Source: an uncultured Eubacteriales bacterium
GTDB lineage: Bacteria > Bacillota > Clostridia > Oscillospirales > CAG-272
NCBI GenBank assembly: GCA_934432675.1
Contig: CAKRYT010000004.1
Location: 19,570-83,569, forward strand
Length of the DNA stretch: 64,000 nt
Direction: 5' to 3'
Shown here: in pieces, positions 39,711-62,724 of the stretch
Layout: every line of letters begins with the position of its first letter
Numbering within the stretch: position 1 is the first letter of the stretch
Notes under the pieces: model-generated
Database searches by the model: none
Told to the model about the DNA's origin: nothing
The model's input: the letters and a program-made list of their open reading frames with translations, nothing else
Made by a program: the position numbers and the translations under genes

Positions 39711-40606
39711 GATACGGTACCTCGTTTCAAAAGCTCGGAGAAGAGCTGCCGCTCAATCGGCTTTTCGCAGTTGAGGGCAATGAACCCCGCACCGCGCTTT
39801 TTGCAGAAATTGCCAATGTCATCGTAGAAAGCGGTGACGGCCTCACGGAATGCCTGCTGCATGGATTTGTTGATGCGGAGTTTCATGTTGCGGGCGTCTG
39901 CCATGTCCACGGACTCCGCGTCGATCAGGTTGATCCTGTCCGTATAGGTAGGGTCGAGTTCATCCGGGGAATAGACCTGCATGAGCAGGATCTGTTTCTT
40001 TTTGTAAACCAGGTAATCGACGCCTTTTTTCCAGTCGTCGTTTGAGAAGAAGTCGGAGATAATCACCGTCAGCCCGTCACCCGTCCCGGTATTCGGATTG
40101 GAGATGATGGCGCGGGAAATCTCCGCTTCACCGTCGAATTCGATCCGATCGAGCGTCTTCATCGCACGGAAGAATGCGGTCTTCCCGACGATGGTGCCGA
40201 AAGGATTTTCCGCCTTGCCCCCCCGAATCAGATGGTACGATACCTTGTCCATATTGTGGATGGCGAGGTATCCCATGGCGGCGGCGGCGGCAATGGCGTA
40301 CGCGCCCTTGTCCGGATTGACCTTCCCCATGGAGCCCGAGCAGTCGATGAAGATCTGCACGTGCATTTGTCTTTCATCGGTGAACAGTTTGATAAAGTAC
40401 TTCTCAAAACGGCTGTATAGATTCCAGTCGATGCGGCGGATATCGTCTCCCAGCATATACTCGCGGTAATCGGCGAATTCCACGGTCTGCCCGTAGGTGT
40501 TGACCAGGTGCTTGCCGCCGAAGTAGCCGCCGAGATCCTTACGCAGGTTAAACGCAAGTGCCTCCAAACGACTGAAAAACGCGTCGTTCAAATAAGAAGC
40601 TTTCAT
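39707..40606 (-). CDS. DUF58-family protein (vWA-like, MoxR partner)
   Basis: FADYREYMLGDDIRRIDWNLYSRFEKYFIKLFTDERQMHVQIFIDCSGSMG is the DUF58 core motif. 299 aa. The start overlaps the MoxR stop by 1 nt (TAATG at 40604-40608). Confidence 0.9.
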   Translation of the reverse strand: MKASYLNDAFFSRLEALAFNLRKDLGGYFGGKHLVNTYGQTVEFADYREYMLGDDIRRIDWNLYSRFEKYFIKLFTDERQMHVQIFIDCSGSMGKVNPDKGAYAIAAAAAMGYLAIHNMDKVSYHLIRGGKAENPFGTIVGKTAFFRAMKTLDRIEFDGEAEISRAIISNPNTGTGDGLTVIISDFFSNDDWKKGVDYLVYKKKQILLMQVYSPDELDPTYTDRINLIDAESVDMADARNMKLRINKSMQQAFREAVTAFYDDIGNFCKKRGAGFIALNCEKPIERQLFSELLKRGTVS

Positions 40607-41649
40607 TAGTCTTTACTGTTGTCTCCCACAGCGGCATTCCACACGCCGGCATCCAGATGCACCTTGCATCTCTTTGCGACTTCTTCCACGATCATACGGA
40701 TGACCGTGTCGGGGGCGACGCGTTCGGCGATCGCCTCGAAGTTCATCTTCATACGGTGGCGCAGCACGGGGAAAGCCAGCGACGCGACGTCCGAGTAGGA
40801 CACGTTGTATCTGCCGTTCATGAGTGCCAGCACTTTAGCGGCGGAGATGAGTGCCTGACCGCCACGCGGGGAGGAGCCGAGCCGGATATAGTTCTTCGCC
40901 GCCTCCGATGCGTGCACGCTGTCGGGCTGGGTCGCGGAAATGATCATCATGGCGAAGTCCAGTACCTCGTCCGCGACGGGGATCTGATTGGCGGTCTCGC
41001 GCATTTCGAGCAGCTGCTCTGCGTTGCAGGCGGCGTTCGCGGTCTCGCCCATGGTCTTCTGCGTCATGGTGACGATGCCCTTCAAATCTTCGAGCGAGGG
41101 GTTATCGACCACCAGTTTGAACATGAAACGGTCCATCTGTGCCTCCGGCAGCGGATAGGTACCGTCCTGCTCCACGGGGTTCTGCGTCGCGAGGACGAAG
41201 AACGGTTCTTTCATCCGGCGGGAGACGCCCATGACGGTCACGGTGTGCTCCTGCATGGCTTCCAGCAGGGCCGACTGCGTTTTCGGCGTCGCACGGTTGA
41301 TTTCGTCTGCGAGAATCAGGTTGGCGAAGATCGGACCGGGCTCAAAGCGGAAGGTGGAGTTACCGTTTTCATCCTTGGTGATGATGTTGGTACCCGTAAC
41401 GTCCGCCGGCATCAGGTCGGGGGTGAACTGAATACGGGAAAAAGGAAGATCGAATACGCGGCTGAGCGTTCTGACAAGCCTTGTCTTACCCACCCCGGGT
41501 ACCCCTTCCAGCAGGATGTTGCCCCCTGCAATCAGGGCGATGATCGTGTTCCGCACGACCTCTTCCTGCCCTATCATATCCTTGTGGGTCTCTTCAAAGA
41601 TGTGCGTGCAAAGCTCGCTGAAATGCTGAATGCTCTCTTCTGTAACCAT
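40606..41649 (-). CDS. MoxR-family AAA+ ATPase (AAA_3)
   Basis: Walker A LLEGVPGVGKTRLV, RIQFTPDLMPADVTG, Walker B and sensor LILADEINRATPKTQSALLEAMQE, and FFVLATQNPVEQDGTYPLPEAQMDRF. The 347-aa length and adjacency to DUF58/vWA genes are typical for MoxR. Confidence 0.93.
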   Translation of the reverse strand: MVTEESIQHFSELCTHIFEETHKDMIGQEEVVRNTIIALIAGGNILLEGVPGVGKTRLVRTLSRVFDLPFSRIQFTPDLMPADVTGTNIITKDENGNSTFRFEPGPIFANLILADEINRATPKTQSALLEAMQEHTVTVMGVSRRMKEPFFVLATQNPVEQDGTYPLPEAQMDRFMFKLVVDNPSLEDLKGIVTMTQKTMGETANAACNAEQLLEMRETANQIPVADEVLDFAMMIISATQPDSVHASEAAKNYIRLGSSPRGGQALISAAKVLALMNGRYNVSYSDVASLAFPVLRHRMKMNFEAIAERVAPDTVIRMIVEEVAKRCKVHLDAGVWNAAVGDNSKD

Positions 41650-41694: not shown

Positions 41695-42843
41695 TTATTT
41701 GGCGATATTGTTGAAGTAGTCGCTGATGGTGTCCGACTGTCCGCCGGACAGGTTGGTGTTGCCGCTCGTGGCGTTTTGTGCCTCGGAGAGGCTGTTGCTG
41801 TATTCGTTGCCGTAGAAGGTCTTGCCGTCGATGACCTGGTTGCCGGGCAAGGAAGATCCGCCCGCACCGGCACCGTCGCCGTCACCGTCACCATCTCCGT
41901 CTCCGTCACCGTCTCCGTCACCGTCGGAGGGGTCACCCGGTTTCGACGGTGCCTTGTCCTCGTCCCACGGCCGTTTGTCACCGGAGCCGTTCGAGTCCTG
42001 GTCCTGCGAGGGGTCCCCGTCCTCAAAATCGTTTGCGTCGGCGGGCTCGAAGATTGCCATGACCTTAAAGCCGTTCTGCACGTCCGCGTCGGCACGGAAA
42101 GCGTCTTCCACACCGTCCGTCCAGCCGACGAAGATGTATCCGTCATCCGCGATGGCCTGCATGGGCTCACCGGCCGAACCGGCGGCGACCTGCTGTCTGA
42201 CGATACCGAGTTTGCGGTCCTCTTCTTTCTGCTCGGGTCCGCCGACGACGACACCGCCCACGTTGTCCATGACACCGTACACGATCTCGTAGTACACGGT
42301 CTCCGACTTCGTTTTCGAGTCCGAAATGTATTGGAGGAGCGATTCGTCGACCAAAGCGTCAGCGGTCGTCGCAGTCGCGCTGACCGCGGCGGTCGTCGCG
42401 CAGATCACGATGAGCGGCACGGAAACCGCAAGTTTGATCAGCGAGGCGTTAACCTTTTTGAGTGCCGCGATGGTGTCTTCCCGCTGGCGGCGCGCCATGA
42501 AACTTTCGTCCCCCTCCAACTGTGCCATGGTCAGCACTCTCTCTTCGAGCCCGAGCATATCCACGCGGGACGCTACCTGACGCAGGGAGTTTTTAAATTT
42601 GCCGAAGTAAAAGAGTGGGGTCGCGGCGGCGACACCGACGGCGAAAACAACGGGGCCGATCCAGTACATCTTGATGCCGAATACCAGGCTCAGGACCGTA
42701 TAAAGAATATCCAGCGCAAACCCGACGATAAGACCGCAGAGTGCGGACTTGACCCATCCTTCCGTTGCCAGGCGGGAGCGGTATTGTGCCAGCAGTTTTT
42801 CTGCCTCGGACACGGGCTTATCGCTGTGTTTCTGTGTGCTCAT
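41695..42843 (-). CDS. Multi-pass membrane protein with extracytoplasmic Flg_new repeat and a (DG)9 acidic tract; first gene of the MoxR operon
   Basis: TM helices ALCGLIVGFALDILYTVLSLVF, WIGPVVFAVGVAAATPLFYF and AVSVPLIVICATTAAVSA. The Flg_new-like segment is DGYIFVGWTDGVED...FKVMAIFEP, followed by DPSDGDGDGDGDGDGDGDGDGAGAGG. AGGAGG precedes tandem ATGs at 42846 and 42843, and I chose 42843 for better spacing. The track start at 42882 has no RBS. Confidence 0.75.
   Translation of the reverse strand: MSTQKHSDKPVSEAEKLLAQYRSRLATEGWVKSALCGLIVGFALDILYTVLSLVFGIKMYWIGPVVFAVGVAAATPLFYFGKFKNSLRQVASRVDMLGLEERVLTMAQLEGDESFMARRQREDTIAALKKVNASLIKLAVSVPLIVICATTAAVSATATTADALVDESLLQYISDSKTKSETVYYEIVYGVMDNVGGVVVGGPEQKEEDRKLGIVRQQVAAGSAGEPMQAIADDGYIFVGWTDGVEDAFRADADVQNGFKVMAIFEPADANDFEDGDPSQDQDSNGSGDKRPWDEDKAPSKPGDPSDGDGDGDGDGDGDGDGDGAGAGGSSLPGNQVIDGKTFYGNEYSNSLSEAQNATSGNTNLSGGQSDTISDYFNNIAK
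41872..41925 (-). repeat. In-frame hexanucleotide repeat encoding (Asp-Gly)x9
   Basis: The plus strand is GTCDCC-type hexamers (GCCGTCACCGTCACCATCTCCGTCTCCGTCACCGTCTCCGTCACCGTC). The minus strand is GAC GGT GAC GGA ..., 18 codons of alternating D and G. Confidence 0.9.
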
Positions 42844-42935: not shown

Positions 42936-42964
42936 AATATAGCACTTTGGTATAGGCTTGTAAA
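42936..42964 (-). promoter_or_regulatory. Sigma-A type promoter of the MoxR/vWA-adhesin operon
   Basis: On the minus strand: TTTACA (42964-42959), 17-nt spacer, TATATT (42941-42936), with TGc extended -10, in an AT-rich island about 90 nt upstream of the start codon. Confidence 0.65.
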
Positions 42965-43015: not shown

Positions 43016-43270
43016 TGCCCGTTTTTCTATCTTATGCCGAAAATCGCGGGTCGGCAAATCGAAAAATGCACCCCGCGGGGTGCCGCGATGCAAAAAACCG
43101 TGAAAACTCCCTCCCCGTCGGGGGGCGTCATCTGCCGCGCCGTGCGCGACGGCCCCCGAAAAAACGCATGGGGGCTGCACCGGGATATAACGGCTCCCGA
43201 AAAAGCACATCGGAGGTGACGCCCGTCCGTCGCGCCGTCGTGCTCCCCTGCCCCGCCCGCACGGACGAAC

Positions 43271-43305
43271 AAAACGCCCCCCGCCAAAATGATTGGCGGG
43301 GGGCG
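43271..43305 (-). terminator. Rho-independent terminator of the giant LRR gene
   Basis: On the minus strand, stem CGCCCCCCGCCAA / TTGGCGGGGGGCG with a 5-nt loop, then TTTTG. A second hairpin (43306-43328) precedes it. A further GC palindrome followed by a T-tract lies at 43062-43083. Confidence 0.8.
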
Positions 43306-43345
43306 GAAGACCGATGGTTTCGGTCTTCTTTCGGTTACAGTGGCG

Positions 43346-46300
43346 TTATTCCGTTACGCCGGGGGTTGCGGGTGTCGTTGTCTTGCCGTAGTCCCAGACA
43401 ATGGTAGCCTGGCAGTTGCCGTCCCAGCCGCTGCGCAGAGCATGATGCCATGTAGCGGCTGCCGCCTTCGATGCCTTGAAGCGGATGGTCTGTTCCGCGG
43501 TCCAATCGCCGAATGCCAGCGAACGGATAGCCGTCACGTTCTCGGGAATTTCAATCACGGAGAGAGAGGTACATCCGTTGAATGCCTTGTTGTCGATGGT
43601 CGTAAGCGTATCGGGCAGGGTCACGGATTTCAGAGAGATACAGCCGGCAAAGGTCCAACTGTTCAACTGAACGAATCCCTCTTCAAACACTGCCGTTTCG
43701 AGTGCCAGGCAGTTCTCGAACATGGAGGTCGCGCCCACGGTGATGGAGCCGGGGACCGTGATGCTCGTGAGGCCGGAGCCCTTGAACGCCGTCGAACCGA
43801 CGCTCGTCACGGTTTCGGGAATGACCAGGGAGGTCAGGCTCGTGCAGTTCAGGAACGCGGAGGTCGGAATCGCCTTGACAGACCCGCCGAGAGACACTCT
43901 CGCAAGGCTCGCGCAACCGTTAAAGATGCTCGTGCCGAGCGCGAGGTCGCCCTCCACGGTAGGCAACGTGATCATAAGCAGGCCGGAGTCGCTGAACGCC
44001 GTATCACCGATGTCGGTCAACTTCGAGCCCTTTGCGAAGGTGACGGTCGCGAGTGCTGTGCAGCCCTTGAACGCACTTTTACCGATGGTCTCGACGGACG
44101 CGGGGATTTCGATGGAGGTCAGAGCCGCGTTCAGGAATGCTTCCTTACCGATCGAGGTCAGCGCGGCTTTGTCGCCGAAGGTCACCGTTGCAAGTGCCGT
44201 GCAGTCCTTGAAGGCACTTTCACCGATATCTGCCTGCGCCCCTGCCGGGAAGGCAAAGTTTGCAAGCGCGGTGCAACCGTTGAAAGCACTGGTACCGATG
44301 GTGGTAACCGAAGCGGGGATGGTGACACTGGTGAGTGCCGTACAGCCCTTGAATGCCGAGCTGTTGATGTACTCGACACCATCCGAGAGGATGACCGTCG
44401 TCAGTGCCGTGCAGTTCTGGAACGTATAGCCTGCACCCGTCGAGGAGGTCTCGTCGGAACTGTAAAGTGCTTTCAGCGTGCCGGGGATCGTGATGCTCGT
44501 GAGGCCGGAGCCCGAGAAGACATACGCACCCATCGACTTCACGGTCGTGGGGATCGTGAAACTCGTCAGCGACGTGCAGTCGCGGAACGCGGAGCTGTTC
44601 AGTTCGGTAATGGCACCGAGGAAAGTGACGGAAGTCAGTTTTTCGCAACCGTAGAAAGTCCAGGACGCCTCATAAGGCCGATAAAGGTTGGTCACACCCG
44701 CAGGGAGTGTGATGGCCGTCAGCCCGCTGCCGGCAAACGCGTACTCGCCGAGCGTCGTGAGTTGCGAGCCATCTGCGAAGGTGATGGACGCGAGCGAAGT
44801 GCAATCTTCAAATGCGTTGTCGCCGATTTCGGTGACGCTCGCCGGAATGGTGATGGATTTCAGCTTGGAGCCGCTGAACGCACTCGCACCGATCTTCGTC
44901 AGCGTGGACGGGAGCGTAATCGACTCGATGCCGGCACCGAAGAATGTTTCATCCGGGATCTCGGTCAACCCCTCGGGGAGTGTGAGCGATTTCAGGATGT
45001 TCACGCCGTTCAGGGCCCACGCGCCGAGGTTGGCGGCGGCGGGCAGCGTCGCGGCCGCCCCCTCCGTCAGTTTGCCGGGCATGGCAATGATGGTGGGCAG
45101 ATCGTCCTTCGTCGCGGCGGACTTCATGAGCAACGTCTCGTTCTCGGTAATGGCGAACGTCTCGAACGTCGTATTCCCTTCCGCAACGGTGAACTTGGTG
45201 AGTTGACGGCACCCGCCGAAGGCGTTGTCGCCGATGGACGTGCAGTTCTTCGGAATGGTAATCGAGGTCAGTCCGCTGTTGAGGAACGCGTTTGCGGCGA
45301 TAGACGTCACCGTGTCGGGGAGCGTAATCACGCCGAGTGCGGAGCAACCGCGGAACGCACCGTCATCGATGGTCGTGATGCAGTTTGCCGTCACGGTCGC
45401 GAGGCTCTCACAGCCGTTGAAAGTACGCTTCGGGAGAGACGTGACCTGATCCGGCAGCGTCACCGACGTCAGCGCGGAGCAACCTTCAAAGACATACCTG
45501 CCCAGTGTCAGTGTCTTGTCCCTGTTCTCAAACGTCAGCGTTGCAAGGTCCTTACAGCCGAGGAAGGTATAATCGCTGAGTTTGTTCACTCTTGCGGGAA
45601 CTTCAAAGGCGGTCAGACCGGCGTTCTGGAAAGCCTTGGTGCCGATCGTCAGCGCAGCAGTACCCTTGGCGAACGTTGCGGTGGCGAGTTTCTCGCAACC
45701 GTCAAAGCAACTGTTGCCGATCTTTGTGACCGTCGACGGGATATTGATGGCCGTCAGTTCCGCACAATACTGGAACGCATAGTTGCCAATCGTGGTTACC
45801 TTCTCCGGGAGAGTGACGGTAGCCAGTTTAATACAGCTCTCAAACGCGCTGTTACCGATGGTGATATTCGCGGTTCTCGCCGCAAAGGTCACGGTGGTCA
45901 GGTTTTCACACGCCTTGAATGCACTGCTGCCGATCGAAGAAACGTTGGCGGGGATCTCGACAGAGGTCAATGCGGTTTTCGTGAATGCAGAGCTACCGAT
46001 GGTCATCTTACCGGTGCCGCCTGCAAAGGTGACGGAAGCAAGTTTCTCGCAACCGTCAAAGCAGTAGTCACCGATCTGTGTGAGGCCGGACGGGAAGGAG
46101 ACGGACGTCAGCTCCGTGCAGCCCTGGAAGACGTAACCGCCGAGCTTCTGGATGCCGGCAAAGGTCACGGACTTCAAACTCTTGCAGTTGAGGAACTGCT
46201 TGGCTCTCGAAGACGCGGTTGCAGTAGTCCCGGTGCCAAGTAGCTTGACGCCCTTCGGGATGTCGATGCTCTCGATGCCGGATCCCTCAAAGCAATTGGT

Positions 46301-49300
46301 CAGGATGGTGTCCAGAGCCGAGTCGGCACCGAAGGTAACGGATTTGAGATTGATGCAGTCCTTGAACATCGAGCCACCGAGCGTTTTCACACTGTCCGGG
46401 ATGGCCATGGTGGTCAGCGCGGTGCAATTCTGGAATACGGTAGAACCGAACGTCGTGAGCCCGGAGGGGAACGTCACGGAGGTCAGGCTCGTGCAGTCCT
46501 TGAAGGTGCTGTTCGGCATGGTCTGCATCGTATTCTCGAAGACGACGGTGGTCAGGCTCTTGCAGGAATCGAACACCTGGTAACCGAACGAGGTCACGGA
46601 TTTCGGAACGGTGAACGACGTGTACGGCTGGTACTGGAAAGCATTGTTGCCGATAGTAGTGAGTGCCGTGTTGCCCTCCTGCGTCTTGGCGAAGGTTACG
46701 CTTTCGAGGAAGCCGGCGTCACTGGCGGAGGCACCCAGAAATGCCTTCTCGCCGATCGTCGTCACGGTAGACGGGATGGTCACGGAAGTAAGACCCGCCT
46801 GGGCAAAGGCACTCTTGCCGATGGTCAAGAGCCCCTCGGGGAGCGTGATCGACGTCAGCTTGTGAGCGGCACTGAACGTGCTGTCGGGAATTGCCGTCAG
46901 GTTACCGGGCAACGTCACGTTACGCAGTTCATAGCAGTTCTGGAAGACACCGGTGCCGAACTTCTCGACGTTGAGCTGGCTGGGTTTTTCCTTGGTGTGC
47001 TCAAATACAATCTCTTCGAGGAGCGCGCAACCGGCGAAGGCGTTGTTACCGATTTCCTTGACGCTGGCGGGAATGATGAGTTTAGTGAGTGCAATCTGAT
47101 TTTCGAAGACGTTGGCACCGATCAACTCGATGGTGCTGCCCACCCTGAATTCCCCGACGATCAGACCGGAGACATACTGGTAAGCGGTCTTCTGTTTGTT
47201 GTAGAGGATCGGGTCGCCCTCCACGGCAGAGAAATTCTCACTCGCGGGGTCAACGACGAAACCCTTGATGGAGGAGCAGCCGGCAAACGTACCTTCAATT
47301 TTGCCGACCGACTTCGAGAGGGTGACGGTCGTAAGTTCTTTGCAGCCGTTAAATAGTTTTTGACCCAGTGTGAGATCGCCGCTCTTCAACGTTGGGAACG
47401 CGAAGGAAGTCAGGGCGGTGTTTGCAAACGCGCTGTCGCCGATGTTCGCTACCTTGGAGTATGCGGGCGCGCCCTCCGCATCGCTTTCGGGGGCGGTCGC
47501 AAAGGTCACGGATGCGAGGCTGGTGCACTCGCTGAACGCACTTGCACCGATACTCGTCGCACTTGCCGGGATGGTGATGGAAGTCAGACTCGTGCAGGAA
47601 CCGAACATATTGGATCCGATGGCGGTCGTGCCTTCGGGGAGGGTAATGCTCGTCAGTGCCTCACAGGATTTGAAGACATAGGTGCCGAAAACGATGTCCT
47701 TGGTCGTTGCAAAACTCACAGAAGTCAGGGCACCCGCGGACTGGAAGCAGTTGTTCCCGATGTTACCGACGCCCTCCGGGATGACGATGGAAGTCAGACC
47801 CGAGTACTTAAATGCACTCTGCCCCAGAGAATACGACGCCTTGGCATCCCCCGCGGGGAGCGTGATGCTCGTGAGTTTCCTGCATTCTTCAAACGCACTT
47901 GTACCGATGGCGGTCACTTTCGCGCTGGTGTCTTTGAGGGACGCCGTCGCCGCAAAGGTGACGGAGGTCAGGTTCTTCGCATAGTAGAAAGCGTAGTTGC
48001 CGATCCGCTCGATGGTCGAGGGGAAGGTGACGGTCGTGATCGCGTGGTTGATCTCCGGTCTCGCTTGCGGACCGCCGCCAATCTTAGTCTGACCGCCAAA
48101 TGCGTAGTTACCGAGGACGGTCATACGCTCCGGGAAGTTGACGGTCGTCAGTGACGTACAACCGTTGAACGGCGAGTTTGCAGGAGCACTTGCGTCCTTG
48201 ATGACGAGCGGCACGACCTCGTCGCCCTCACCGGGCGCGGCAAAGGTCAGCGTTTTCAGTTTTTTACAACCGCTGAACGCTTTGTTGCCGATGCTGGTGA
48301 CCGTGCAGGGGATGGTAATCTCCTCCAACTGGTCGCAGAACAGGAACAGGCTGTCGGCGATCTCCGTCAGCCCCTTCGGGAGCGTGACGGAAGTCAGTTT
48401 CTGCGTGCTGGAAAAAGCGTTCTGTTCAATGGTGAATTCCGCACCGGCGGCAATGTCACTGAACCTGACGGCGGTGACGACGTCGTTGTAGAAGAATGCC
48501 CAGCCGCACACCTTGGTGACGGTGCCGGGGACGTTCACCTCGGTAGAGCCGGCCTTATTCTGCGGGCAGTAGAGCAACGACGTCACGACGTATACAGTCG
48601 TCTCGGCACCGTCGCCGTCGGTCGTGGTCTCTGCCGTCTTCTGATAGAGGACGTTGTCGATCGTCCCGTAGTACCGGTTGGTATCCGGGATGGACAGCTT
48701 TTCGAGCGAGAGGCAGCCGATGAACAGCGTGCAGGCGCCCTTATCCTTTTGCGAGGACGATGTGTTGGCAGTCGCGAGCTCGATCTTTTCGAGCGTGGAC
48801 GGGAGCTTCACTTCGGTCAGATCGCGGCAGTACCGGAAGGCTGCCTCGCCGATCTCGGTGAGCCCTTCGGGCAGGGTGATACTCGCGAGGTTGAAACACG
48901 ATTCAAATGTAAATGCTCCGAGGGTTTTGAGACGCGCGGGGAGTTCCACCGCGGTCAGCGTACTGCAACCCTTGAAGGCATACTTGTCGATGGCGAGGTC
49001 TGCCGTGCCGCCCTCCGTAAAGGTGACGTACGTCATCTTGTTACATCCCCGGAACGCGCCTTCCCCGATGCTCGTCACGTTCTTGCCGATGGTGATACCG
49101 GTAAGACCCGTTCTTTCGAGGAACGCGTTGGCACCGATTTCGGTCACCGTCTCGGGCAACGTATAATCGCCGGCGCGTTCGATCGGGTAGAACGCCACTT
49201 TGGTGACCCCTTTATCGAACAGAACGCCGTCCACGGCGGTGTAGTCCTCGTTTTCTTCGGCAACGTCAATGCTTTGAAGTTTCTTGCCGAGCACGCCGGG

Positions 49301-52300
49301 AATATCGAAGTACAGGGCCTTTGCACCGATGTACGCGTCGACGACGTACGAGGTCCCGTTCGTCGAGGCGAATGCGCCGTTGGCGAGTTCCACCTTGATC
49401 GGCGGATCGAGTTTCGATTTGTCCGTCGTGTTGACCGTGACGTGGGTCAGTTTGCTCGTATTGCCGAAAGCGTTGACTTCCAGCTTGACGAGTCGGGTCG
49501 GGAGCGTAACGGATTCGAGGCCGGAGCATCCGTAGAATGCCGCCTCACAGATGGTGAGGGGCTGCCCTTCCGGATCTTCCATGTCGACCTCGGTCACGCT
49601 GCTGTTACCCTTGAAAGCGTTTTTGCTGATGGTCGTCACATAGCCGGGGATCACGACCTTCGTGAGGCTCGTGCACCCGGAGAATGCCTCTTCGCCGATC
49701 ACCTCGACGCCGGAGGGGATCGTGAAAGTGCCCGTCATGCCCTGCGGGCAGAAAATGAGTGTCGTGCCGTCCGCGGAGCAGAGGACCTTTCTGCCGTCCT
49801 CGCCCTTGGCGGTATAGAGACCGCCCTCGCCGCGGATGTCGACGGAAGTCAGTGCCGAGCAATCCACGACCTTCTGCGCCGTGAATTCCGTCACGCGTGC
49901 CGGGATGGTGAGCGACGTCAGTGCGCTGCATCCGTTGAACGCCTTATCCTCGATGGTGAGCGGAACGCTCTTCTCGCCCTCCGGCGTATCCAGGAACTTG
50001 ACGGCCAGGAGGCTCTTACTGTTGATGGCGTTGGTGCCGATCAGGGACACCGTGTACGGGATCTGGATCTCATACGCCTTGGTGTTCTTGAAGACGCCGG
50101 CAGAGATGGTATCGGTCCCCTCTGCCACCTTGATGACACCCGTCTTGTTGTACGGGCAGTATCTGACGTCCCTGACACCGAACTCGTTGCAATACAGGAT
50201 GCCGTCCACCGAATAATACTTCGGCTCGATGGCGTCCGCATCGTAGATGTTGACGGCTTTGAGCTTGTAGCAGCTCTGGAAGCAGGAGGAAGCACCGCTC
50301 GTACCGTCGATACCGGTATTGATGACCTCGATGGTGTTCGGGATATTGATGGTCACAAGCGTCCCGCAGGAAGCAAATGCGCCGCTCGCGATGGTGGTAA
50401 CGGGCTTACCGTTGTAGGTGGCGGGAATGGTGATCTCGGTCAGGTTACCGATACCGTACGGGCCCTTGGAGACGGAGTACGCCGTGTCACCGTCGATGAG
50501 TTTGTAGGACAGCATCTCCGCATAGTACGCGTAGAGCGTCACGTTTTCCTTGGTGTTGTTCCACTTGAACAGGGCTTCGCCCTTATCGTCAAAGTAGCGG
50601 ATCCCGGCACCGTTCGGCTCGGAGAACCAACCGACGAAGGTCCTCGTCGCATCCGTGCAGGTCGCCGTAATGATCGTATTGTGTTTCCCGTAGGTAACGG
50701 TCACTGTATCCTTCTCCACCGTGCCGAGATCCCCGGGATTCAGGGTGACGTTGAATTTCTTGGCGATCCAGGCCGCGTAAAGCACCAGGTCTTCGCCGTC
50801 GCAGACCGTCTCGGTGTATTCTTTACCGCTGACGAGACCGTTCGGCGACAGGAACCAGCCGGCGAAGTCATAGCCCTCGCGGGTGGTGGCAGGCAGAACG
50901 ATACGGTCGCCCTTTGCCCGATAGAGGCTGGTGACTGCCGTACCGCCGCGGACATCCAGCAGGATCTCTGCGACCTCCACCGTGATGGAGACCCGGTCGG
51001 AACGCTCGCCCTGCTCGGTCTCGGAGCAGACGGAGATCTTGACCTCCCCGCTCTCCGTGAAGGAAATGGGCGCAAAGGCAGCGGTGGCCGGGACGACGAT
51101 TTCATTCGTCGAGTCACCGATCGTGATGATGTACTTTTCCGCATTCAGTACCGGCGTCCAGTAGAGGTAACCGTTGCGGTAACTGACCTCGGTGATCGCC
51201 GCGTTGTGCAGCGTGACCGTCTCCGACACGGGCGAATTGGCCTGTGCTTCCTCGGCGATTGCCTGTACGGTGATCTCATAGGTATCGGTATTGTCGGAAA
51301 GGACGTCTTTGCCCATCACAAAGGAATTCTCCGTGACGGTGTATTCGGTACCGTTGACGGTCACCTTGTAGCTGACCGCGCCGGGCACCTTGTTCCAGAC
51401 CACGGTGGTACCGTTCAGGGTTACACCGCTCGGGCGTGCGAGCACCGTCTTGTTGAAGGACACTGCCTCGGAGGCCTCGGCATAGTACCCGGTGCAGACG
51501 GGCGTCACCTTGACGTACAGCGTGCCGGCATCCCGGTCGGTGAGGTCGTAGGAGGTCCCGCTCATCACGGTGTAATCCGTGTAGTTCACGCCGTCCTTCG
51601 AGAGGCTGACGACGTACCACGCGGCATTCGTGACGGGGTTCCAGGTGATCTTCGTGTCGTCCGCCGCGACACCGGTGACGGTGTCCAGGGAACGGTAGTA
51701 GGTAAAGGTGCTGACCGAGTCAAGATACCCGTTTGCCTTTGCCGTAACGACGAAACGGATACCGTCCTTCGGCATCGCGCAGTTGGCGAAATTGAAGTTC
51801 GTCGAGTTGCCGTTATTCTCGGAGAGATGGTTATGGTTGTTGCTGCCGCAGATGACGGAGATCACGTAGTTCTCCGCATTCTTCACCGGATCAAACACCA
51901 GAAGACCGGAAGCAACCACCTTGAAACCGCCGACGCGGTCCAGACCCTTGTTGCGGTAGTAGGCGGTCGCCGCCTTGCCGTCAACGGTCACGGTGACGGT
52001 GTAGTCGCCTGCCGCCTGCTTCGTGAAGTCAAAATCATAGTGGGCAGCGGTGGCTTTGGCATTCGAGAGAACTTCCGTGTCGCCGCACTTAATCGTCACG
52101 GAGTAGGCGACGTTGGTGCCGACGGAGTTCCAGTCGATGCTGTTCCCGTTCACGGAAACAGAAGGTGCGCCGTCCGCATTTGCATAGACTGCGTAGAGGG
52201 TAACGTCCTGCGTGAGCACCTGACCGGTGTACTGCTGCGTCAGTTTGTCCGCATTCTCGTAGTCACTCATCCACCAGCCGACGAATGCCGCGCCGTCCTT

Positions 52301-53014
52301 AGCCGCGGGGGTCGGGAGGTTATACAACACGCCGTTCACGGTCTTCACGGGGGCATAGGTCTCCCCGCCGCCGACGAAGGAGGCAGTATACTTGATATAG
52401 TCGTTGGTCCGCTCCACGAAACGCGCGTACACCGTGGTATTCTGGGTGATACCCGTGCTGTCAAACGCGAACGCCTTGGTGTACGTCTTGTCGGTGTACC
52501 AGCCGAGGAAGGCATAGCCGTCCTTCACAGGGTCTGCCGGTTTGGACACGCACGCGCCGTTCTTGACCGTTTTGGATGCGGTTTCGCTCCCGCCGTCCAC
52601 ATCGAAGGAGACGGTGAAAGTGGTCTTTTTCAGCATCCGATAGGTGCCGCCGTTGTATGTAAGCGTCAGAACGTCGTTCTCGATTTTGGCGGAGGCATTG
52701 GTGGTATCGCCCTCCTCGAACGTGAGCGTCAGAACGCCGTTCTCGTAGGTGAAAGTACCACGCTGTACTCCGTTCAGACCGGAAATGATGAAAGTATTGT
52801 GCTTGATGCTGAACAAATACTCCTCGTCGTCTTCGGTCATGAAGAAATCGTAGTTGATTCCATAGTCGATTTCCGTCTGGGTGCCCGGATCCTTGGTGCC
52901 GGGGTCTTTTTTGTTGCCCCCGTCGTCCTTGTCACATGACACCAACAGGAAGAGTGAAACGCAAAGTGCGATCAGCAGAATGATGCCGACCAGACTCCTC
53001 TTGAAGTGGCTCAT
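43346..53014 (-). CDS. Giant surface lipoprotein (3,222 aa): Flg_new repeats, Fn3-like domains and a roughly 7-kb BspA-type LRR array
   Basis: ATG at 53014 follows GGGAGG (53022-53027).
Lipobox LFLLVSC|DKDDGG (Cys codon 52934-52936).
Flg_new pairs at about 52.15-52.6 kb (GYAFLGWYTDKTY...TVYARF) and about 50.5-51.0 kb (GYDFAGWFLSPNG...LVLYAAW).
Fn3-like modules at about 51.0-52.15 kb (IDWNSV...YSVTIK, ITWNPV...WYVVSL, VVWNKVPGAVSYKVTV).
Continuous LRR units (LTSVTIP..V..IG..AF..C..L) run to within about 45 aa of the C-terminus.
The track start at 53095 was trimmed. Confidence 0.88.
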   Translation of the reverse strand: MSHFKRSLVGIILLIALCVSLFLLVSCDKDDGGNKKDPGTKDPGTQTEIDYGINYDFFMTEDDEEYLFSIKHNTFIISGLNGVQRGTFTYENGVLTLTFEEGDTTNASAKIENDVLTLTYNGGTYRMLKKTTFTVSFDVDGGSETASKTVKNGACVSKPADPVKDGYAFLGWYTDKTYTKAFAFDSTGITQNTTVYARFVERTNDYIKYTASFVGGGETYAPVKTVNGVLYNLPTPAAKDGAAFVGWWMSDYENADKLTQQYTGQVLTQDVTLYAVYANADGAPSVSVNGNSIDWNSVGTNVAYSVTIKCGDTEVLSNAKATAAHYDFDFTKQAAGDYTVTVTVDGKAATAYYRNKGLDRVGGFKVVASGLLVFDPVKNAENYVISVICGSNNHNHLSENNGNSTNFNFANCAMPKDGIRFVVTAKANGYLDSVSTFTYYRSLDTVTGVAADDTKITWNPVTNAAWYVVSLSKDGVNYTDYTVMSGTSYDLTDRDAGTLYVKVTPVCTGYYAEASEAVSFNKTVLARPSGVTLNGTTVVWNKVPGAVSYKVTVNGTEYTVTENSFVMGKDVLSDNTDTYEITVQAIAEEAQANSPVSETVTLHNAAITEVSYRNGYLYWTPVLNAEKYIITIGDSTNEIVVPATAAFAPISFTESGEVKISVCSETEQGERSDRVSITVEVAEILLDVRGGTAVTSLYRAKGDRIVLPATTREGYDFAGWFLSPNGLVSGKEYTETVCDGEDLVLYAAWIAKKFNVTLNPGDLGTVEKDTVTVTYGKHNTIITATCTDATRTFVGWFSEPNGAGIRYFDDKGEALFKWNNTKENVTLYAYYAEMLSYKLIDGDTAYSVSKGPYGIGNLTEITIPATYNGKPVTTIASGAFASCGTLVTINIPNTIEVINTGIDGTSGASSCFQSCYKLKAVNIYDADAIEPKYYSVDGILYCNEFGVRDVRYCPYNKTGVIKVAEGTDTISAGVFKNTKAYEIQIPYTVSLIGTNAINSKSLLAVKFLDTPEGEKSVPLTIEDKAFNGCSALTSLTIPARVTEFTAQKVVDCSALTSVDIRGEGGLYTAKGEDGRKVLCSADGTTLIFCPQGMTGTFTIPSGVEVIGEEAFSGCTSLTKVVIPGYVTTISKNAFKGNSSVTEVDMEDPEGQPLTICEAAFYGCSGLESVTLPTRLVKLEVNAFGNTSKLTHVTVNTTDKSKLDPPIKVELANGAFASTNGTSYVVDAYIGAKALYFDIPGVLGKKLQSIDVAEENEDYTAVDGVLFDKGVTKVAFYPIERAGDYTLPETVTEIGANAFLERTGLTGITIGKNVTSIGEGAFRGCNKMTYVTFTEGGTADLAIDKYAFKGCSTLTAVELPARLKTLGAFTFESCFNLASITLPEGLTEIGEAAFRYCRDLTEVKLPSTLEKIELATANTSSSQKDKGACTLFIGCLSLEKLSIPDTNRYYGTIDNVLYQKTAETTTDGDGAETTVYVVTSLLYCPQNKAGSTEVNVPGTVTKVCGWAFFYNDVVTAVRFSDIAAGAEFTIEQNAFSSTQKLTSVTLPKGLTEIADSLFLFCDQLEEITIPCTVTSIGNKAFSGCKKLKTLTFAAPGEGDEVVPLVIKDASAPANSPFNGCTSLTTVNFPERMTVLGNYAFGGQTKIGGGPQARPEINHAITTVTFPSTIERIGNYAFYYAKNLTSVTFAATASLKDTSAKVTAIGTSAFEECRKLTSITLPAGDAKASYSLGQSAFKYSGLTSIVIPEGVGNIGNNCFQSAGALTSVSFATTKDIVFGTYVFKSCEALTSITLPEGTTAIGSNMFGSCTSLTSITIPASATSIGASAFSECTSLASVTFATAPESDAEGAPAYSKVANIGDSAFANTALTSFAFPTLKSGDLTLGQKLFNGCKELTTVTLSKSVGKIEGTFAGCSSIKGFVVDPASENFSAVEGDPILYNKQKTAYQYVSGLIVGEFRVGSTIELIGANVFENQIALTKLIIPASVKEIGNNAFAGCALLEEIVFEHTKEKPSQLNVEKFGTGVFQNCYELRNVTLPGNLTAIPDSTFSAAHKLTSITLPEGLLTIGKSAFAQAGLTSVTIPSTVTTIGEKAFLGASASDAGFLESVTFAKTQEGNTALTTIGNNAFQYQPYTSFTVPKSVTSFGYQVFDSCKSLTTVVFENTMQTMPNSTFKDCTSLTSVTFPSGLTTFGSTVFQNCTALTTMAIPDSVKTLGGSMFKDCINLKSVTFGADSALDTILTNCFEGSGIESIDIPKGVKLLGTGTTATASSRAKQFLNCKSLKSVTFAGIQKLGGYVFQGCTELTSVSFPSGLTQIGDYCFDGCEKLASVTFAGGTGKMTIGSSAFTKTALTSVEIPANVSSIGSSAFKACENLTTVTFAARTANITIGNSAFESCIKLATVTLPEKVTTIGNYAFQYCAELTAINIPSTVTKIGNSCFDGCEKLATATFAKGTAALTIGTKAFQNAGLTAFEVPARVNKLSDYTFLGCKDLATLTFENRDKTLTLGRYVFEGCSALTSVTLPDQVTSLPKRTFNGCESLATVTANCITTIDDGAFRGCSALGVITLPDTVTSIAANAFLNSGLTSITIPKNCTSIGDNAFGGCRQLTKFTVAEGNTTFETFAITENETLLMKSAATKDDLPTIIAMPGKLTEGAAATLPAAANLGAWALNGVNILKSLTLPEGLTEIPDETFFGAGIESITLPSTLTKIGASAFSGSKLKSITIPASVTEIGDNAFEDCTSLASITFADGSQLTTLGEYAFAGSGLTAITLPAGVTNLYRPYEASWTFYGCEKLTSVTFLGAITELNSSAFRDCTSLTSFTIPTTVKSMGAYVFSGSGLTSITIPGTLKALYSSDETSSTGAGYTFQNCTALTTVILSDGVEYINSSAFKGCTALTSVTIPASVTTIGTSAFNGCTALANFAFPAGAQADIGESAFKDCTALATVTFGDKAALTSIGKEAFLNAALTSIEIPASVETIGKSAFKGCTALATVTFAKGSKLTDIGDTAFSDSGLLMITLPTVEGDLALGTSIFNGCASLARVSLGGSVKAIPTSAFLNCTSLTSLVIPETVTSVGSTAFKGSGLTSITVPGSITVGATSMFENCLALETAVFEEGFVQLNSWTFAGCISLKSVTLPDTLTTIDNKAFNGCTSLSVIEIPENVTAIRSLAFGDWTAEQTIRFKASKAAAATWHHALRSGWDGNCQATIVWDYGKTTTPATPGVTE
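43485..50440 (-). repeat. BspA-type LRR coding array of the giant gene (approximate bounds)
   Basis: The first unit is around ...GNLTEITIPATYNGKPVTTIASGAF (50.40-50.45 kb) and the last is around IPENVTAIRSLAFGDW. That is about 2,300 aa of units of about 23-25 aa, which I roughly estimate at 90-100 units (not counted individually). The DNA copies I compared are diverged rather than identical. Confidence 0.75.
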
Positions 53015-53044
53015 AATTTTCCTCCCACTTAAAAAATATGTTAT

Positions 53045-53073: not shown

Positions 53074-53923
53074 GATTTTTTCTAAAATAATTCAAATTTA
53101 TCGAATATCACTCAAATTCCCCCGTTTCGCGCATCAATTTTGGTGTGATTTGCAACGGGCTCGGTCAAAATCGCACGTCCGCGGCGGCATTCCCTCCCGT
53201 TCCGGCAGGCGGGGCATGCCCTTCTCCCGTCCGGCCCCGCCGCGGCACCCGGTCTCGCGCCCCTTCGCGGGGCCGCAACTCACCGCCGAAACGTTCCCGT
53301 CGCGATACGATGCGTCCCGTCAAAACACCCCTCCGCGGCGCGGTGTGCCCTGTCGAAAACGCCGCCGCGTCACGATGCGTACCGACGGCGATGGCACAAT
53401 GCGTACCGACGTCGCCGGCGGCGTCTTGCAGAAACCCATGCATGACTGCATATTTATTTATATGTGCGAATATTTATGCTGTCTCCCCTGAAAATGAAAT
53501 ATTGCTCTCCGCTGTTCTGCCGGGCGATGGAAACGGCAAGACGCGCCCGCCTAACTTGCAACTACCCCTGCGTCATTCCGAACCTGCGGGCGCGTATCAC
53601 GTGTACCCCCGCCACATGGAGCATTTTACCCGTGTACGGCCATTACCAAGGGAAGTGCAACGCTTGAGGGGCGGGAGTCGGAGCCCTGCCCGCCCCCGCG
53701 GCGGAACGCGGTTTTCCCATATATAATATTATAGATGGGTTTCCTCGTCGGCGCGATGCCCCCACTCTTGCCGCCGTATGCAACCGTGTGGTGCCGGAAT
53801 TGCATTTTTGTTAAAATGCCGTCATTTTATGCCCTCGATGCCGCCGCCTCTTCCCGTCGCGATAATATCGGATCGGTGACGTTTTGCGGCCTTCGTTTTG
53901 CATAGCATCTGCATAATATAAAA

Positions 53924-60512: not shown

Positions 60513-60902
60513 ATGGATAGAAGACATACCATACAACGTGAAATTGTCCTGAAGACCGTGCGGCGGCTGCATACCCATGTAACGGCGGACGATGTGTACG
60601 GCGCGGTGCGGGATGAGTTCCCCGCCGTCGGGCGCGGAACGGTGTACCGCAACCTGAACATCCTTGCCGAGGAGGGTGAGATCCGCAAGATCGAGGTGCC
60701 CGGAGAGGCCGATCGATTTGACTTCACAATAGCGGCGCATTACCATGTGAAATGCATGATCTGTAAAAGAATATCCGACGTGGATATGGCGGCTATCCCG
60801 CAGCTCCCGGATACGATCAAAGACAATCGCGGAGGGCAATTCACCCTTTGCGATGTGGCGTTCACAGGTATCTGCCCGGAATGCCGAAAGAAGAATATTT
60901 GA
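60513..60902 (+). CDS. Fur-family transcriptional repressor (PerR-like by context)
   Basis: RHTIQREIVLKTVRRLHTHVTADDVYGAVRDEFPAVGRGTVYRNLNILAEEGEIRKI is a winged HTH. The metal sites are HYHVKCMICKRISDVD and the C-terminal CPEC. GGAG lies 6 nt before ATG 60513, and the track start at 60483 was trimmed. Confidence 0.88.
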   Translation: MDRRHTIQREIVLKTVRRLHTHVTADDVYGAVRDEFPAVGRGTVYRNLNILAEEGEIRKIEVPGEADRFDFTIAAHYHVKCMICKRISDVDMAAIPQLPDTIKDNRGGQFTLCDVAFTGICPECRKKNI

Positions 60903-60933
60903 CATGATTTGCGTGAAAGGAGAACCACTAAAA

Positions 60934-62724
60934 ATGAAAATCACAGACGACATTGTCTACGCCGGCGTCAACGATCACGGAATTGATCTGTTTGAGGGGC
61001 AGTACCGGGTGCCGAACGGGATGGCGTATAATTCTTATGTGATCCTTGACGAAAAAACAGCCGTAATGGATACGGTAGACAAGAATTTTACGCACGAGTG
61101 GCTGGATCATCTTGCGGCGGCACTTGACGGCAGAGATCCGGACTATCTGATCGTGCAGCATATGGAGCCGGATCACAGTGCCAATATCGTCCATTTCCTG
61201 CAAACCTATCCGAGGGCGATCATCGTCTCCTCCGACAAGGCATTCAAGATGATGAAAAACTTTTTCGGGACGGAATTTGAGGGCAGGCGGATCGTCGTCG
61301 GGGAAAATAGCACGCTATCGCTCGGGAAGCACACATTGACGTTTCTCACTGCCCCCATGGTTCATTGGCCGGAGGTGATCGTCACATACGATAGCCTTGA
61401 CAAGGTGCTGTTTTCGGCAGACGGATTCGGTAAATTCGGCGCGCTGGACGTCGAGGAGGACTGGGCGGACGAGGCGCGGAGGTACTATTTCGGGATCGTC
61501 GGAAAGTACGGCGCACAGGTACAGGCACTCCTGAAAAAAGCGGCCGGGCTGGATATTCGGACGATCTGCCCGCTACATGGTCCGGCACTGGCGGAAAACC
61601 TCGGCTACTATCTCGGTCTGTACCAAACATGGTCCGCCTACGCAGTGGAAAGCGAGGGGATCACCGTCGCATACACCTCCGTGTACGGAAACACCAGAAA
61701 AGCCGTGGAGATACTGGTCGAGCAGCTGAAAGCGAACGGATGCCCGCAGGTTGCCGTCACCGACCTTGCCCGCGGGGATATGGCGAAAGCGGTGGAGGAC
61801 GCCTTCCGCTACGGAAAAATCGTTCTTGCCACTACCACCTATAACGCCGATATATTCCCGTTCATGAAGGAGTTTATCCATCACCTGACCGAACGCGGCT
61901 TTAAGAACAGGACGGTCGCCCTGATCGAAAACGGTTCATGGGCACCGCAAGCGGCAAAAACCATGCGGGCGATGCTGGACGGGTGCAAGAACCTGACTTT
62001 TACCGACACGACCGTCAGGATCCTTTCCGCGGTGAATGACGAAAGCAGTGCCCAGATTGATGCGCTGGCAAAGGAGCTGACCCGGGACTACACAGCGCAA
62101 AACGGAGAAACGGCAAACAAAAACGATATGACCGCGCTTTTCAGAATCGGTTACGGGCTGTATGTCGTGACCTCAAATGACGGCAAAAAAGATAACGGTC
62201 TGATTGTCAATACGGTAACACAGGTCACGGATGCTCCGAACCGGATCGCCGTCTGCATCAACAAGCAGAATTATTCGCACCACGTCATTCGGCATACCGG
62301 CATCATGAATGTCAACTGTCTGTCGGTGGACGCACCATTCTCGGTGTTTGAGTCTTTCGGCTTCAGAAGCGGGAGAAACACGGACAAATTCGCCGATTGC
62401 AAGACGCTCCGCTCGGACAACGGGCTTGTCTTCCTTTCACAGTATATCAATGCGATGATGTCGCTGAAGGTGGAACAATATGTCGATCTCGACACACATG
62501 GAATGTTCCTCTGCTCTGTGACGGAAGCTCGTGTGATTTCCGACAGGGAAACGATGACCTACTCGTACTACCAGGAGAACGTGAAACCGAAGCCCGTAAC
62601 AGACGGCAAAAAAGGATATGTCTGCAAGGTATGCGGCTATGTTTACGAGGCGGATGAGCTGCCGGACGATTTTGTATGTCCGCTTTGTAAGCACGGGGCG
62701 GCAGACTTCGAGCCGATACAGTGA
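60934..62724 (+). CDS. Flavodiiron protein (FprA core) fused to a flavin-reductase-like domain and a C-terminal rubredoxin (596 aa)
   Basis: Metallo-beta-lactamase-like domain with the di-iron motif HMEPDH (61159-61176).
Flavodoxin-like domain ITVAYTSVYGNTRKAVE...TTTYNADIFP.
Flavin-reductase-like segment LFRIGYGLYVVTSNDGKKDNGLIVNTVTQVTDAPNRIAVCINK.
Rubredoxin YVCKVCGYVYEADELPDDFVCPLCKHGAADFEPI.
RBS GAAAGGAG before ATG 60934. Confidence 0.9.
   Translation: MKITDDIVYAGVNDHGIDLFEGQYRVPNGMAYNSYVILDEKTAVMDTVDKNFTHEWLDHLAAALDGRDPDYLIVQHMEPDHSANIVHFLQTYPRAIIVSSDKAFKMMKNFFGTEFEGRRIVVGENSTLSLGKHTLTFLTAPMVHWPEVIVTYDSLDKVLFSADGFGKFGALDVEEDWADEARRYYFGIVGKYGAQVQALLKKAAGLDIRTICPLHGPALAENLGYYLGLYQTWSAYAVESEGITVAYTSVYGNTRKAVEILVEQLKANGCPQVAVTDLARGDMAKAVEDAFRYGKIVLATTTYNADIFPFMKEFIHHLTERGFKNRTVALIENGSWAPQAAKTMRAMLDGCKNLTFTDTTVRILSAVNDESSAQIDALAKELTRDYTAQNGETANKNDMTALFRIGYGLYVVTSNDGKKDNGLIVNTVTQVTDAPNRIAVCINKQNYSHHVIRHTGIMNVNCLSVDAPFSVFESFGFRSGRNTDKFADCKTLRSDNGLVFLSQYINAMMSLKVEQYVDLDTHGMFLCSVTEARVISDRETMTYSYYQENVKPKPVTDGKKGYVCKVCGYVYEADELPDDFVCPLCKHGAADFEPIQ

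Follow-up and report, generated by a model that had tools for sequence, protein, structure and literature searches.

A giant leucine-rich-repeat lipoprotein of fixed length and its conserved MoxR–VWA gene neighbourhood in uncultured gut Clostridia

We analysed a 64,000-nucleotide (nt) stretch of DNA from an uncultured Eubacteriales bacterium (GenBank assembly GCA_934432675.1, contig CAKRYT010000004.1, positions 19,570 to 83,569), referred to here as the window, in which one minus-strand gene encodes a lipoprotein of 3,222 amino acids (aa) built largely of leucine-rich repeats (LRRs). An earlier note, made from the sequence of the window, had singled out this gene as a self-contained unit. We conclude that the giant gene is genuine and selectively maintained, and that it belongs to a large, fixed-length, uncharacterised family. 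Size aside, the gene by itself is an ordinary member of an established class; what is new is the fixed length of the family and its conserved partnership with a Bat-like set of genes downstream.

The giant gene and its signals

The gene is one open frame running from an ATG at 53014 to a stop codon at 43346–43348 (9,669 nt), and it contains no internal stop, just as the earlier note had said of its 9.7 kb. The following features, all on the minus strand, mark the transcription unit and the export signal of its product:

~53085–53103, minus strand: AT-rich box GATAAATTTGAATTATTTT, 5′ of the −35 hexamer; from the orthologue alignment, conserved to 54% protein identity
53045–53073, minus strand: promoter, −35 TTGCAA, 17-nt spacer, extended −10 TG-n-GATAAT; from a consensus scan and the orthologue alignment
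53021–53026, minus strand: ribosome-binding site GGGAGG, 6 nt 5′ of the ATG
43346–53014, minus strand: coding sequence of the giant lipoprotein, 3,222 aa; mature protein 337 kDa, pI 4.8
52934–53014, minus strand: signal peptide and lipobox L-V-S-C (LLVSC), aa 1–27; predicted lipidation site Cys27
43275–43328, minus strand: two adjacent hairpins after the stop codon, 43306–43328 and 43275–43305, the second an intrinsic terminator
43068–43088, minus strand: further terminator-like hairpin, intergenic, 200 nt beyond; consensus match only

The signal peptide reads MSHFKRSLVGIILLIALCVSLFLLVS and is followed by Cys27, which is invariant in 13 aligned orthologues; lipoboxes are also found in the 44 closest orthologue clusters. 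The strong ribosome-binding site and the lipobox described earlier both stand, and from the signal peptide and the invariant cysteine we predict that the protein is exported and anchored in the membrane. Its composition is acidic and rich in Thr (13%), Ser and Gly. The scan returned four promoter-like sites in the region, including that at 53073–53045, a count not above chance. In an alignment of seven orthologous upstream regions, the hexamers and the TG of this site are conserved to 54% protein identity while the spacer varies, so that the gene does appear to have the promoter of its own that had been assigned to it. The AT-rich box further upstream may be an UP element or a regulator-binding site.

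At the other end of the gene, the tandem terminators reported in the earlier note correspond to the two adjoining hairpins 3′ of the stop codon. In the second, TTTTGTT follows a GC-rich stem of 13 bp; most orthologues carry a hairpin and a T-run of unrelated sequence at the equivalent site. With promoter and terminator both conserved, ‘monocistronic’ is probably the right word for the transcription unit, but it misleads biologically, as the gene heads a conserved eight-gene cluster. The second hairpin differs from its counterpart in the 90% relative (L085, bases 30–60 past the stop codon): the stem is identical, and the loop and inner stem are inverted (CCAATCATTTTGG versus CCAAAATGATTGG), which looks like a hairpin-mediated inversion between strains.

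Two long antisense open reading frames (ORFs) lie within the gene on the plus strand, at 43289–46243 (984 aa) and 48749–52939 (1,396 aa). We rejected them as genes. The stop-free run observed, 1,594 codons, compares with 1,341 ± 328 in the same frame of codon-shuffled genes, and since shuffled genes give stop-free stretches of equal length, these frames are best regarded as by-products of codon usage. No non-coding RNA or tRNA was found in the window.

Domain architecture of the giant protein

From the signal peptide to the C terminus, the protein divides into the following parts, all encoded on the minus strand:

52601–52849, minus strand: N-terminal β-domain, aa 56–138, with the motif DYGI..YF..EYLF; strands from AlphaFold2, motif conserved
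52184–52618, minus strand: two Flg_new (InlB B-repeat) domains, aa 133–277; Pfam 75 and 31 bits, Protein Data Bank (PDB) sequence matches to InlB
50954–52159, minus strand: five Fn3-like β-sandwiches, aa 286–687; AlphaFold2 and Foldseek
50495–50953, minus strand: two further Flg_new domains, aa 688–840; Pfam 35.6 and 21.7 bits (the second below cut-off), fold in AlphaFold2
43502–50443, minus strand: LRR array of the BspA/TpLRR type (LRR_5), aa 858–3171, at least 80 units of ~23 aa in seven cassettes; Pfam, unit model and AlphaFold2
43349–43501, minus strand: C-terminal cap and tail, aa 3172–3222 (GW-TA-QTIRF...W...C.A.IVW.Y); conserved columns of the orthologue alignment

Pfam searches on pieces of the protein placed Flg_new domains at aa 133–197, 209–276 and 688–747, with a fourth, at 764–829, below threshold; aa 286–687 gave no match above cut-off in these searches. 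An AlphaFold2 model of aa 28–860, computed from an alignment of 27 orthologues, has a mean local confidence (pLDDT) of 84.7 and a predicted template-modelling score (pTM) of 0.64, and runs from the β-domain through two B-repeats and five β-sandwiches to two more B-repeats. For the sandwiches, Foldseek gave matches to fibronectin FnIII arrays, to gp130 and to contactin. As modelled, the stalk consists of nine Ig-like modules, namely four InlB-type B-repeats and five Fn3-like domains. The order given in the earlier note (two Flg_new, Fn3-like modules, two Flg_new, LRRs) is confirmed by the Pfam searches on pieces and by the model, but the β-domain in front of them had been overlooked; it comprises nine strands in the AlphaFold2 model and is weakly lipocalin-like (Lipocalin_4, 18 bits, below cut-off).

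The remainder of the protein is dominated by LRR_5 (PF13306), which scores 1,264 bits against a gathering cut-off of 27.7 and matches 20 stretches. The period is 23 aa, and a unit model built from the giant protein itself gave 80 matches. The unit consensus is LTSVTIPSGVTTIGDSAFKGCTA, with the pattern L..I.IP..V..IG..AF..C..; Phe18 is found in all 33 canonical units and Cys21 in 28. The array had been described as uninterrupted over about 2,300 aa. Its extent, aa 858–3171, is confirmed and leaves 51 aa to the C terminus, but the 23-aa register is broken by six three-stranded modules of 20–50 aa, which divide the array into seven cassettes. A Y..vDGvLY-type motif marks five of the six (aa 933, 1258, 1448, 1928 and 2620), and the sixth lies at about aa 1067–1088.

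A module of this kind, Y..DGvLY, also occurs inside the crystal structure 4GT6 with repeats on both sides of it, and AlphaFold2 predicts five of them at high confidence in its model of aa 840–1975 (pLDDT 90.7, pTM 0.67). Because the same module is found in a solved LRR_5 domain and is confidently predicted here, we regard these β-meanders as typical of the family and not as breaks between domains. Foldseek matched the model of aa 840–1975 to 4GT6, 4FS7, 4H09, 4CP6 and 6MLX with E-values of 1e-7 to 1e-14; the best structural matches of the array are BspA-type LRR proteins (4GT6, 4FS7, 4H09, PcpA and TpLRR), all of at most ~400 aa. By sequence, unit and fold, the giant protein is a member of the BspA/TpLRR (LRR_5) class. 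An LRR solenoid rises by ~0.5 nm per rung, which for ~90 units would suggest a contour of roughly 40–45 nm; LRR solenoids curve, however.

The repeats are old and diverged in DNA

Repeat arrays are prone to mis-assembly, and a gene of this kind could in principle be an assembly artefact or a decaying pseudogene. The earlier note had found the repeat copies that it compared to be diverged at the DNA level, and this is borne out over the gene: Tandem Repeats Finder reported no repeat, and copies are 60–88% identical in DNA over at most 75 nt. The 33 canonical units have a mean identity of 31% in amino acids and 46% in nucleotides. The longest exact repeat in the gene is 25 nt, compared with 12–17 nt in codon shuffles. 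Higher-order periodicity is weak, the identity autocorrelation peaking only at 23 with faint signals at 46–47. Repeats as diverged as these would not confuse an assembler.

We also considered how the divergence arose. Recent duplication or concerted evolution was rejected, as adjacent and distant units are equally similar (0.310 versus 0.314) and synonymous sites are saturated. Selection for extra codon divergence is unsupported: where two units share an amino acid, they share its codon in 49.8% of cases against 46.6% expected from codon usage, slightly above expectation and not below it. We conclude that the units are old and synonymously saturated, and that the array offers little substrate for homologous recombination. 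The earlier proposal that divergence protects the array from collapse is consistent with the longest exact repeat of 25 nt when taken as an effect, but there is no sign that divergence was selected for.

A family of near-constant length under purifying selection

Contigs of at least three independent assemblies encode one and the same 3,222-aa protein. The 90% cluster of the giant protein holds 13 distinct full-length variants that are 95.6–98.4% identical and 3,218–3,225 aa long, and the next 44 orthologue clusters (41–97% identity) are collinear with it, at 2,920–3,280 aa and a query coverage of 87–100%. Gaps in the orthologue alignments are near zero over aa 1–2100; the only indel-prone zones are aa 2100–2400, aa 2900–3100 and the tail. 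When the stalk was used by itself as the query, 2,606 proteins matched at E ≤ 1e-30. Of the best 150 clusters at 50% identity, more than 120 have the complete stalk, at residues ~30–850, and their lengths are mostly 2,300–3,800 aa. Hosts of the homologues are metagenome-assembled genomes of uncultured gut Clostridia, Eubacteriales or Oscillospiraceae.

Length differences between strains cluster at aa 2262–2266, 2779, 2852–2861 and 2381–2403 (~45803–46230 and 44429–44680). In the 80% orthologue there is one clean indel of 23 aa, or one unit, at aa 2381–2403. Gain and loss of units is rare and confined to the regular distal part of the array.

Ratios of nonsynonymous to synonymous substitution rates (dN/dS), which are coarse Nei–Gojobori estimates and not site models, are 0.25–0.30 for the whole gene, 0.06–0.18 for the stalk and 0.24–0.44 for the LRR array. 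By position in the repeat unit, dN/dS is 0.08–0.09 in the core, 0.27–0.29 at positions 2, 3 and 5, and 0.52–0.64 at the exposed positions 12, 15, 16, 19 and 20. Between strains, 2.5% of sites vary in the stalk and 15% in the distal LRRs. The stalk is the most tightly constrained part of the protein, and the distal repeats are the most variable, at exposed positions. The claim that selection maintains the full length is therefore supported by the identical protein in independent assemblies, the near-constant lengths, the collinear orthologues and the overall dN/dS.

Two relatives could be taken as signs of artefact or decay. Frameshifted orthologues, which the earlier note had named as the mark of decay, appeared only in L010 (CP091718.1, a metagenome-assembled ‘chromosome’), where the giant gene is split over several frames. 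So, however, are the MoxR gene and both VWA genes of the downstream cluster described below (VWA665 and VWA979). Because these neighbours are frameshifted too, we attribute the breaks to sequencing error and not to decay; unpolished long-read assemblies typically show indel errors in this pattern. The second case, the 90% relative P0002 (L085), is a mosaic: codons ~801–2080, or ~3.8 kb of the array, are 100% identical in DNA to the 80% lineage (L086), and the rest is ~97% identical to the window lineage. Either recent inter-lineage recombination within the array or a chimeric metagenome contig would account for it. With the same product recovered from independent assemblies and under purifying selection, the probability that the gene is an artefact or a pseudogene is negligible.

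The pattern of variation bears on a further explanation, in which the solenoid and two other large lipoproteins encoded downstream would form a structural coat or spacer, that is, a protective or size-excluding layer whose variability reflects immune or phage pressure. The fixed length of the family, the acidic Thr/Ser/Gly-rich composition and the concentration of variability at exposed distal positions would all suit such a layer, and no specific ligand-binding motif was identified in the giant protein. Yet characterised LRR_5 proteins are binding proteins (PMC2843621), profile searches found no self-assembly or S-layer domain, and dN/dS stays below 1 even at exposed positions. We consider a coat or spacer improbable.

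The giant gene heads a conserved eight-gene cluster

Downstream of the giant gene, on the same strand, lie a promoter-like site and seven further genes:

42936–42964, minus strand: promoter-like site, TTTACA and TATATT (with TG) 17 nt apart, 5′ of the downstream genes; consensus match only
41695–42843, minus strand: 382-aa membrane protein with three transmembrane helices, an ectodomain resembling Flg_new and a (DG)n tail that is acidic; conserved as a neighbour of the giant gene
40606–41649, minus strand: MoxR-type AAA+ ATPase; AAA_3 208 bits
39707–40606, minus strand: DUF58 protein with a DCSGS motif resembling a metal-ion-dependent adhesion site (MIDAS); DUF58 101 bits
37713–39710, minus strand: VWA665, a 665-aa BatA-N and VWA membrane protein with MIDAS DASAS; BatA 30.9 bits (cut-off 25.9), VWA_2 32 bits
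34761–37700, minus strand: VWA979, a membrane protein of 979 aa with two VWA domains plus Ig-like and GATase1-like parts; from domain and MIDAS analysis
31969–34764, minus strand: LRR931, an LRR_5 lipoprotein of 931 aa; 4-nt overlap between its start and the VWA979 stop
26765–31906, minus strand: Flg1713, a 1,713-aa lipoprotein with one N-terminal Flg_new domain, the remainder unassigned; conserved downstream in many loci

We compared this arrangement across 17 loci of species-representative genomes, each with a full-length homologue followed by at least 1.5 kb of sequence. Gene content and order are unchanged in 16 of the 17, down to giant proteins of 28% identity, while the upstream neighbours of the giant gene are not conserved. 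A scan of metagenome contigs with VWA979 as bait gave 80 loci at 38–69% identity. In 32 of the 33 metagenome loci with room upstream, 16–444 nt lie between the end of a long LRR ORF and the membrane-protein gene, and an LRR ORF follows VWA979 in 63 of 75. We conclude that the giant gene is, as judged from gene order, the first member of a conserved eight-gene module of ~27 kb. The earlier note had treated the gene as a loner, which does not hold; the surface module had been overlooked.

Several features of the partner proteins point to the cell surface. Lipoboxes are present in all three large lipoproteins of the cluster. VWA665 and VWA979 are each predicted to have two N-terminal transmembrane helices with a strongly positive loop between them and one C-terminal helix, and on the strength of this 2 + 1 topology and positive inside loop the VWA domains are predicted to lie outside the membrane. 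The same three-helix topology has been shown experimentally for Borrelia BB0173 (PMC5700661). The MIDAS of VWA979 (D461-x-S-G-S...T537...D565) is invariant and the MIDAS residues of VWA665 are intact; sites of this kind on ectodomains would imply extracellular protein ligands. At the end of its predicted ectodomain, the 382-aa membrane protein carries a (DG)n run of low complexity and strong acidity (aa ~300–335; 41839–41946, minus strand), conceivably a ligand for the MIDAS sites of the adjoining VWA proteins. The start codon of the DUF58 gene overlaps the MoxR stop codon at 40606. In searches of NCBIfam and PDB sequences, no partner protein reached the cut-off for a curated name.

The MoxR protein also matches the Pfam domain bpMoxR (45 bits), which is described from MoxR–vWA–β-propeller conflict systems (PMC7159879). 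This raises the question of whether the cluster is a conflict or defence system with the LRR protein as its sensor or effector. The match to AAA_3, at 208 bits, is far higher; the cluster contains no β-propeller and no effector domain, and its VWA domains are predicted to be extracytoplasmic. PADLOC models give only weak AAA similarity, and the synteny of the locus is chromosomal and stable, unlike the setting of a mobile island. A role in conflict is very improbable.

Comparison with known systems

We compared the giant protein with BspA-like and TpLRR proteins, namely T. forsythia BspA, T. denticola LrrA, S. pneumoniae PcpA, S. agalactiae LrrG/HupY, T. pallidum TpLRR and the JCSG structures from gut bacteria, 4GT6, 4FS7 and 4H09. 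It has in common with them the 23-aa unit, the Y..DGvLY β-meander module, the fold and a secretion signal, and it differs from them in its lipid anchor, its nine-module Ig-like stalk and its linkage to a MoxR/VWA cluster. Proteins of the BspA type are surface-located in Firmicutes and Bacteroidetes, and the BspA-like genes of trichomonads vary greatly in length (PMC2843621), whereas the repeat number of the giant family is fixed. Compared with solved LRR_5 domains (≤ ~400 aa), the giant array is ~6 times longer. Two more specific assignments in NCBIfam were rejected on their scores: the equivalog for the HupY/LrrG adhesin (NF047961; 374 bits against a cut-off of 1,250) and the gliding protein Gli349 (NF045861; 250 against 1,750 bits, from 12 matches to one 60-aa stretch of the profile).

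With Listeria internalins (InlB) the giant protein has LRRs and B-repeats (Flg_new) in common, with InlB structure matches at E ~1e-6. The order is reversed, however, with the B-repeats before the LRRs; the unit is the 23-aa TpLRR and not the 22-aa one; there is no inter-repeat domain and no LPXTG; and the anchor is an N-terminal lipid. We therefore do not class it as an internalin: the B-repeat is the only shared element, the LRRs are of the LRR_5 type, and the anchor is a lipobox, not LPXTG.

For the partner genes the closest comparison is with Bat-like operons (B. fragilis batA–E, Borrelia bb0170–0176 and Leptospira bat). The cluster has the same order of MoxR (AAA_3), DUF58, BatA-N/VWA protein and second VWA membrane protein, as well as the three-helix topology. 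Within it, a MoxR-proper AAA+ protein stands beside DUF58, and there is a BatA-N protein with a predicted extracytoplasmic VWA domain and a MIDAS; no match to TPR (BatC/BatE) or BatD was found among the cluster proteins. Unlike in Bat-like operons, genes for three giant lipoproteins and for a Flg_new membrane protein flank the cluster, and the host is a monoderm gut Clostridia bacterium. The VWA proteins, of 665 and 979 aa, are also much larger than Borrelia BB0173 (328 residues mapped).

The nearest precedent for a large surface protein encoded beside MoxR and DUF58 is the PFNA cluster of bifidobacteria (pkb2-fn3-MoxR-DUF58-tgm), whose large secreted Fn3 protein, with its gene immediately 5′ of MoxR and DUF58, is a proposed adhesin with folding that is perhaps MoxR-assisted (PMC8430577). 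In both clusters the gene for a large surface protein is followed by MoxR and DUF58. PFNA, in which the evidence of co-function is itself limited, has a Ser/Thr kinase and a transglutaminase-like membrane protein where our cluster has VWA proteins, and its surface protein has no LRR array. Kinase and transglutaminase are absent from the cluster and its flanks, and membership in PFNA was rejected. In the open-access text of the searchable literature, we found no description of a module that joins LRR_5, MoxR and VWA proteins.

A candidate surface fibre and its possible assembly module

An N-terminal lipid anchor, a conserved stalk and variable distal repeats would fit a molecule that points outward from the cell, and the fibril-like adhesin reaching past the wall that the earlier note had envisaged is plausible. 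We propose that the giant protein forms a surface fibre for binding a ligand, with the Bat-like module docking or assembling it. Lipidation at Cys27 would anchor the chain, and the stalk would carry the LRR solenoid outward, where it would serve as the ligand-binding (adhesive) part, as in characterised BspA-type proteins (PMC2843621). The VWA ectodomains, through their metal-ion sites, might dock or organise the three lipoproteins or bind the acidic tail of the membrane protein, with the cytoplasmic MoxR and DUF58 proteins acting as a chaperone for assembly or remodelling. MoxR–VWA pairs have been proposed more generally to assist assembly (PMC8430577; PMC5700661). We give this proposal, in which the coupling is inferred, about an even chance of being correct.

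Several observations weigh against it. The putative coupling of the giant protein to the MoxR and VWA genes is drawn from conserved gene order. A strong terminator and a gap of 200–600 bp separate the giant gene from the rest of the cluster. In one lineage (L142, L143 and L146) MoxR is missing from its place between the membrane-protein and DUF58 genes, and the giant protein is shorter, at least 1,980 aa. In another (L112 and L119) the giant gene is absent from its position in the cluster; L119, but not L112, has an extra pair of LRR and Flg_new-lipoprotein genes upstream of MoxR. An Acholeplasmatales homologue (L036) has no such cluster nearby. The Nei–Gojobori estimates, lastly, give no region or class of unit positions with dN/dS above 1, and so no sign of positive selection.

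Some of these observations would suit a stand-alone adhesin for ligands on host or food particles, its neighbourhood reflecting shared regulation or an inherited island of surface proteins without any coupling. The conserved promoter and strong terminator of the giant gene, and the existence of a homologue outside the cluster, are what such an adhesin would lead one to expect; BspA, LrrA, PcpA and LrrG act without partners of this kind (PMC2843621), and two more LRR_5 surface proteins are encoded in the window outside the cluster. Against it stands the gene order, which is kept from 97% to 28% protein identity while the upstream neighbours change. In addition, the second LRR lipoprotein is translationally coupled to VWA979 within the operon, and the ectodomain MIDAS sites imply extracellular protein ligands. 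We judge a stand-alone adhesin to be unlikely, though a serious contender to the assembly of the giant protein by the Bat-like module.

The cluster would take on a broader meaning if the three lipoproteins, the Flg_new membrane protein and the two VWA/MIDAS proteins together made up an undescribed surface organelle, assembled or remodelled by MoxR and DUF58, across a broad clade of abundant, uncultured gut Clostridia. This idea is tentative, and we find it possible though somewhat doubtful. If it were true, Bat-type MoxR–VWA operons would gain a concrete client in the form of large surface lipoproteins. The function of MoxR–DUF58–VWA genes has been obscure since the naming of the Bacteroides ‘aerotolerance’ operon. 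Few BspA-type repeat proteins have a known role, although in gut Firmicutes they rank with the most frequent of the predicted surface proteins; the present family is unusual among them in being widespread (hundreds of clusters at 50% identity), constant in size and tied to a MoxR–DUF58–VWA module. A functional linkage would make the giant protein a testable Bat client and a candidate for the attachment of uncultured Clostridia to host or food surfaces; if the linkage is merely genomic, the protein is a well-documented but ordinary candidate for a giant adhesin.

Other features of the window

Some 7–10 kb upstream of the giant gene, at ~60513–62724 (gene calls of L001), are genes for a Fur-family regulator and a flavodiiron/rubredoxin-type protein (oxygen/NO detoxification). 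This neighbourhood is kept in the 80%-identity species (L086) and was not found in more distant lineages, so that any link to the ‘aerotolerance’ name of Bat is probably coincidental. On the far side of the cluster, the plus strand encodes a 2,347-aa protein with S8 subtilase, PA, fn3_5, Big_2 and LRR_5 domains and a C-terminal transmembrane anchor (16377–23420), and a Flg_new and LRR_5 lipoprotein of ~1,050 aa (23302–26574). The window is, from its predicted products, an island of LRR_5 surface proteins, with these two of the BspA type adjoining the cluster on the opposite strand.

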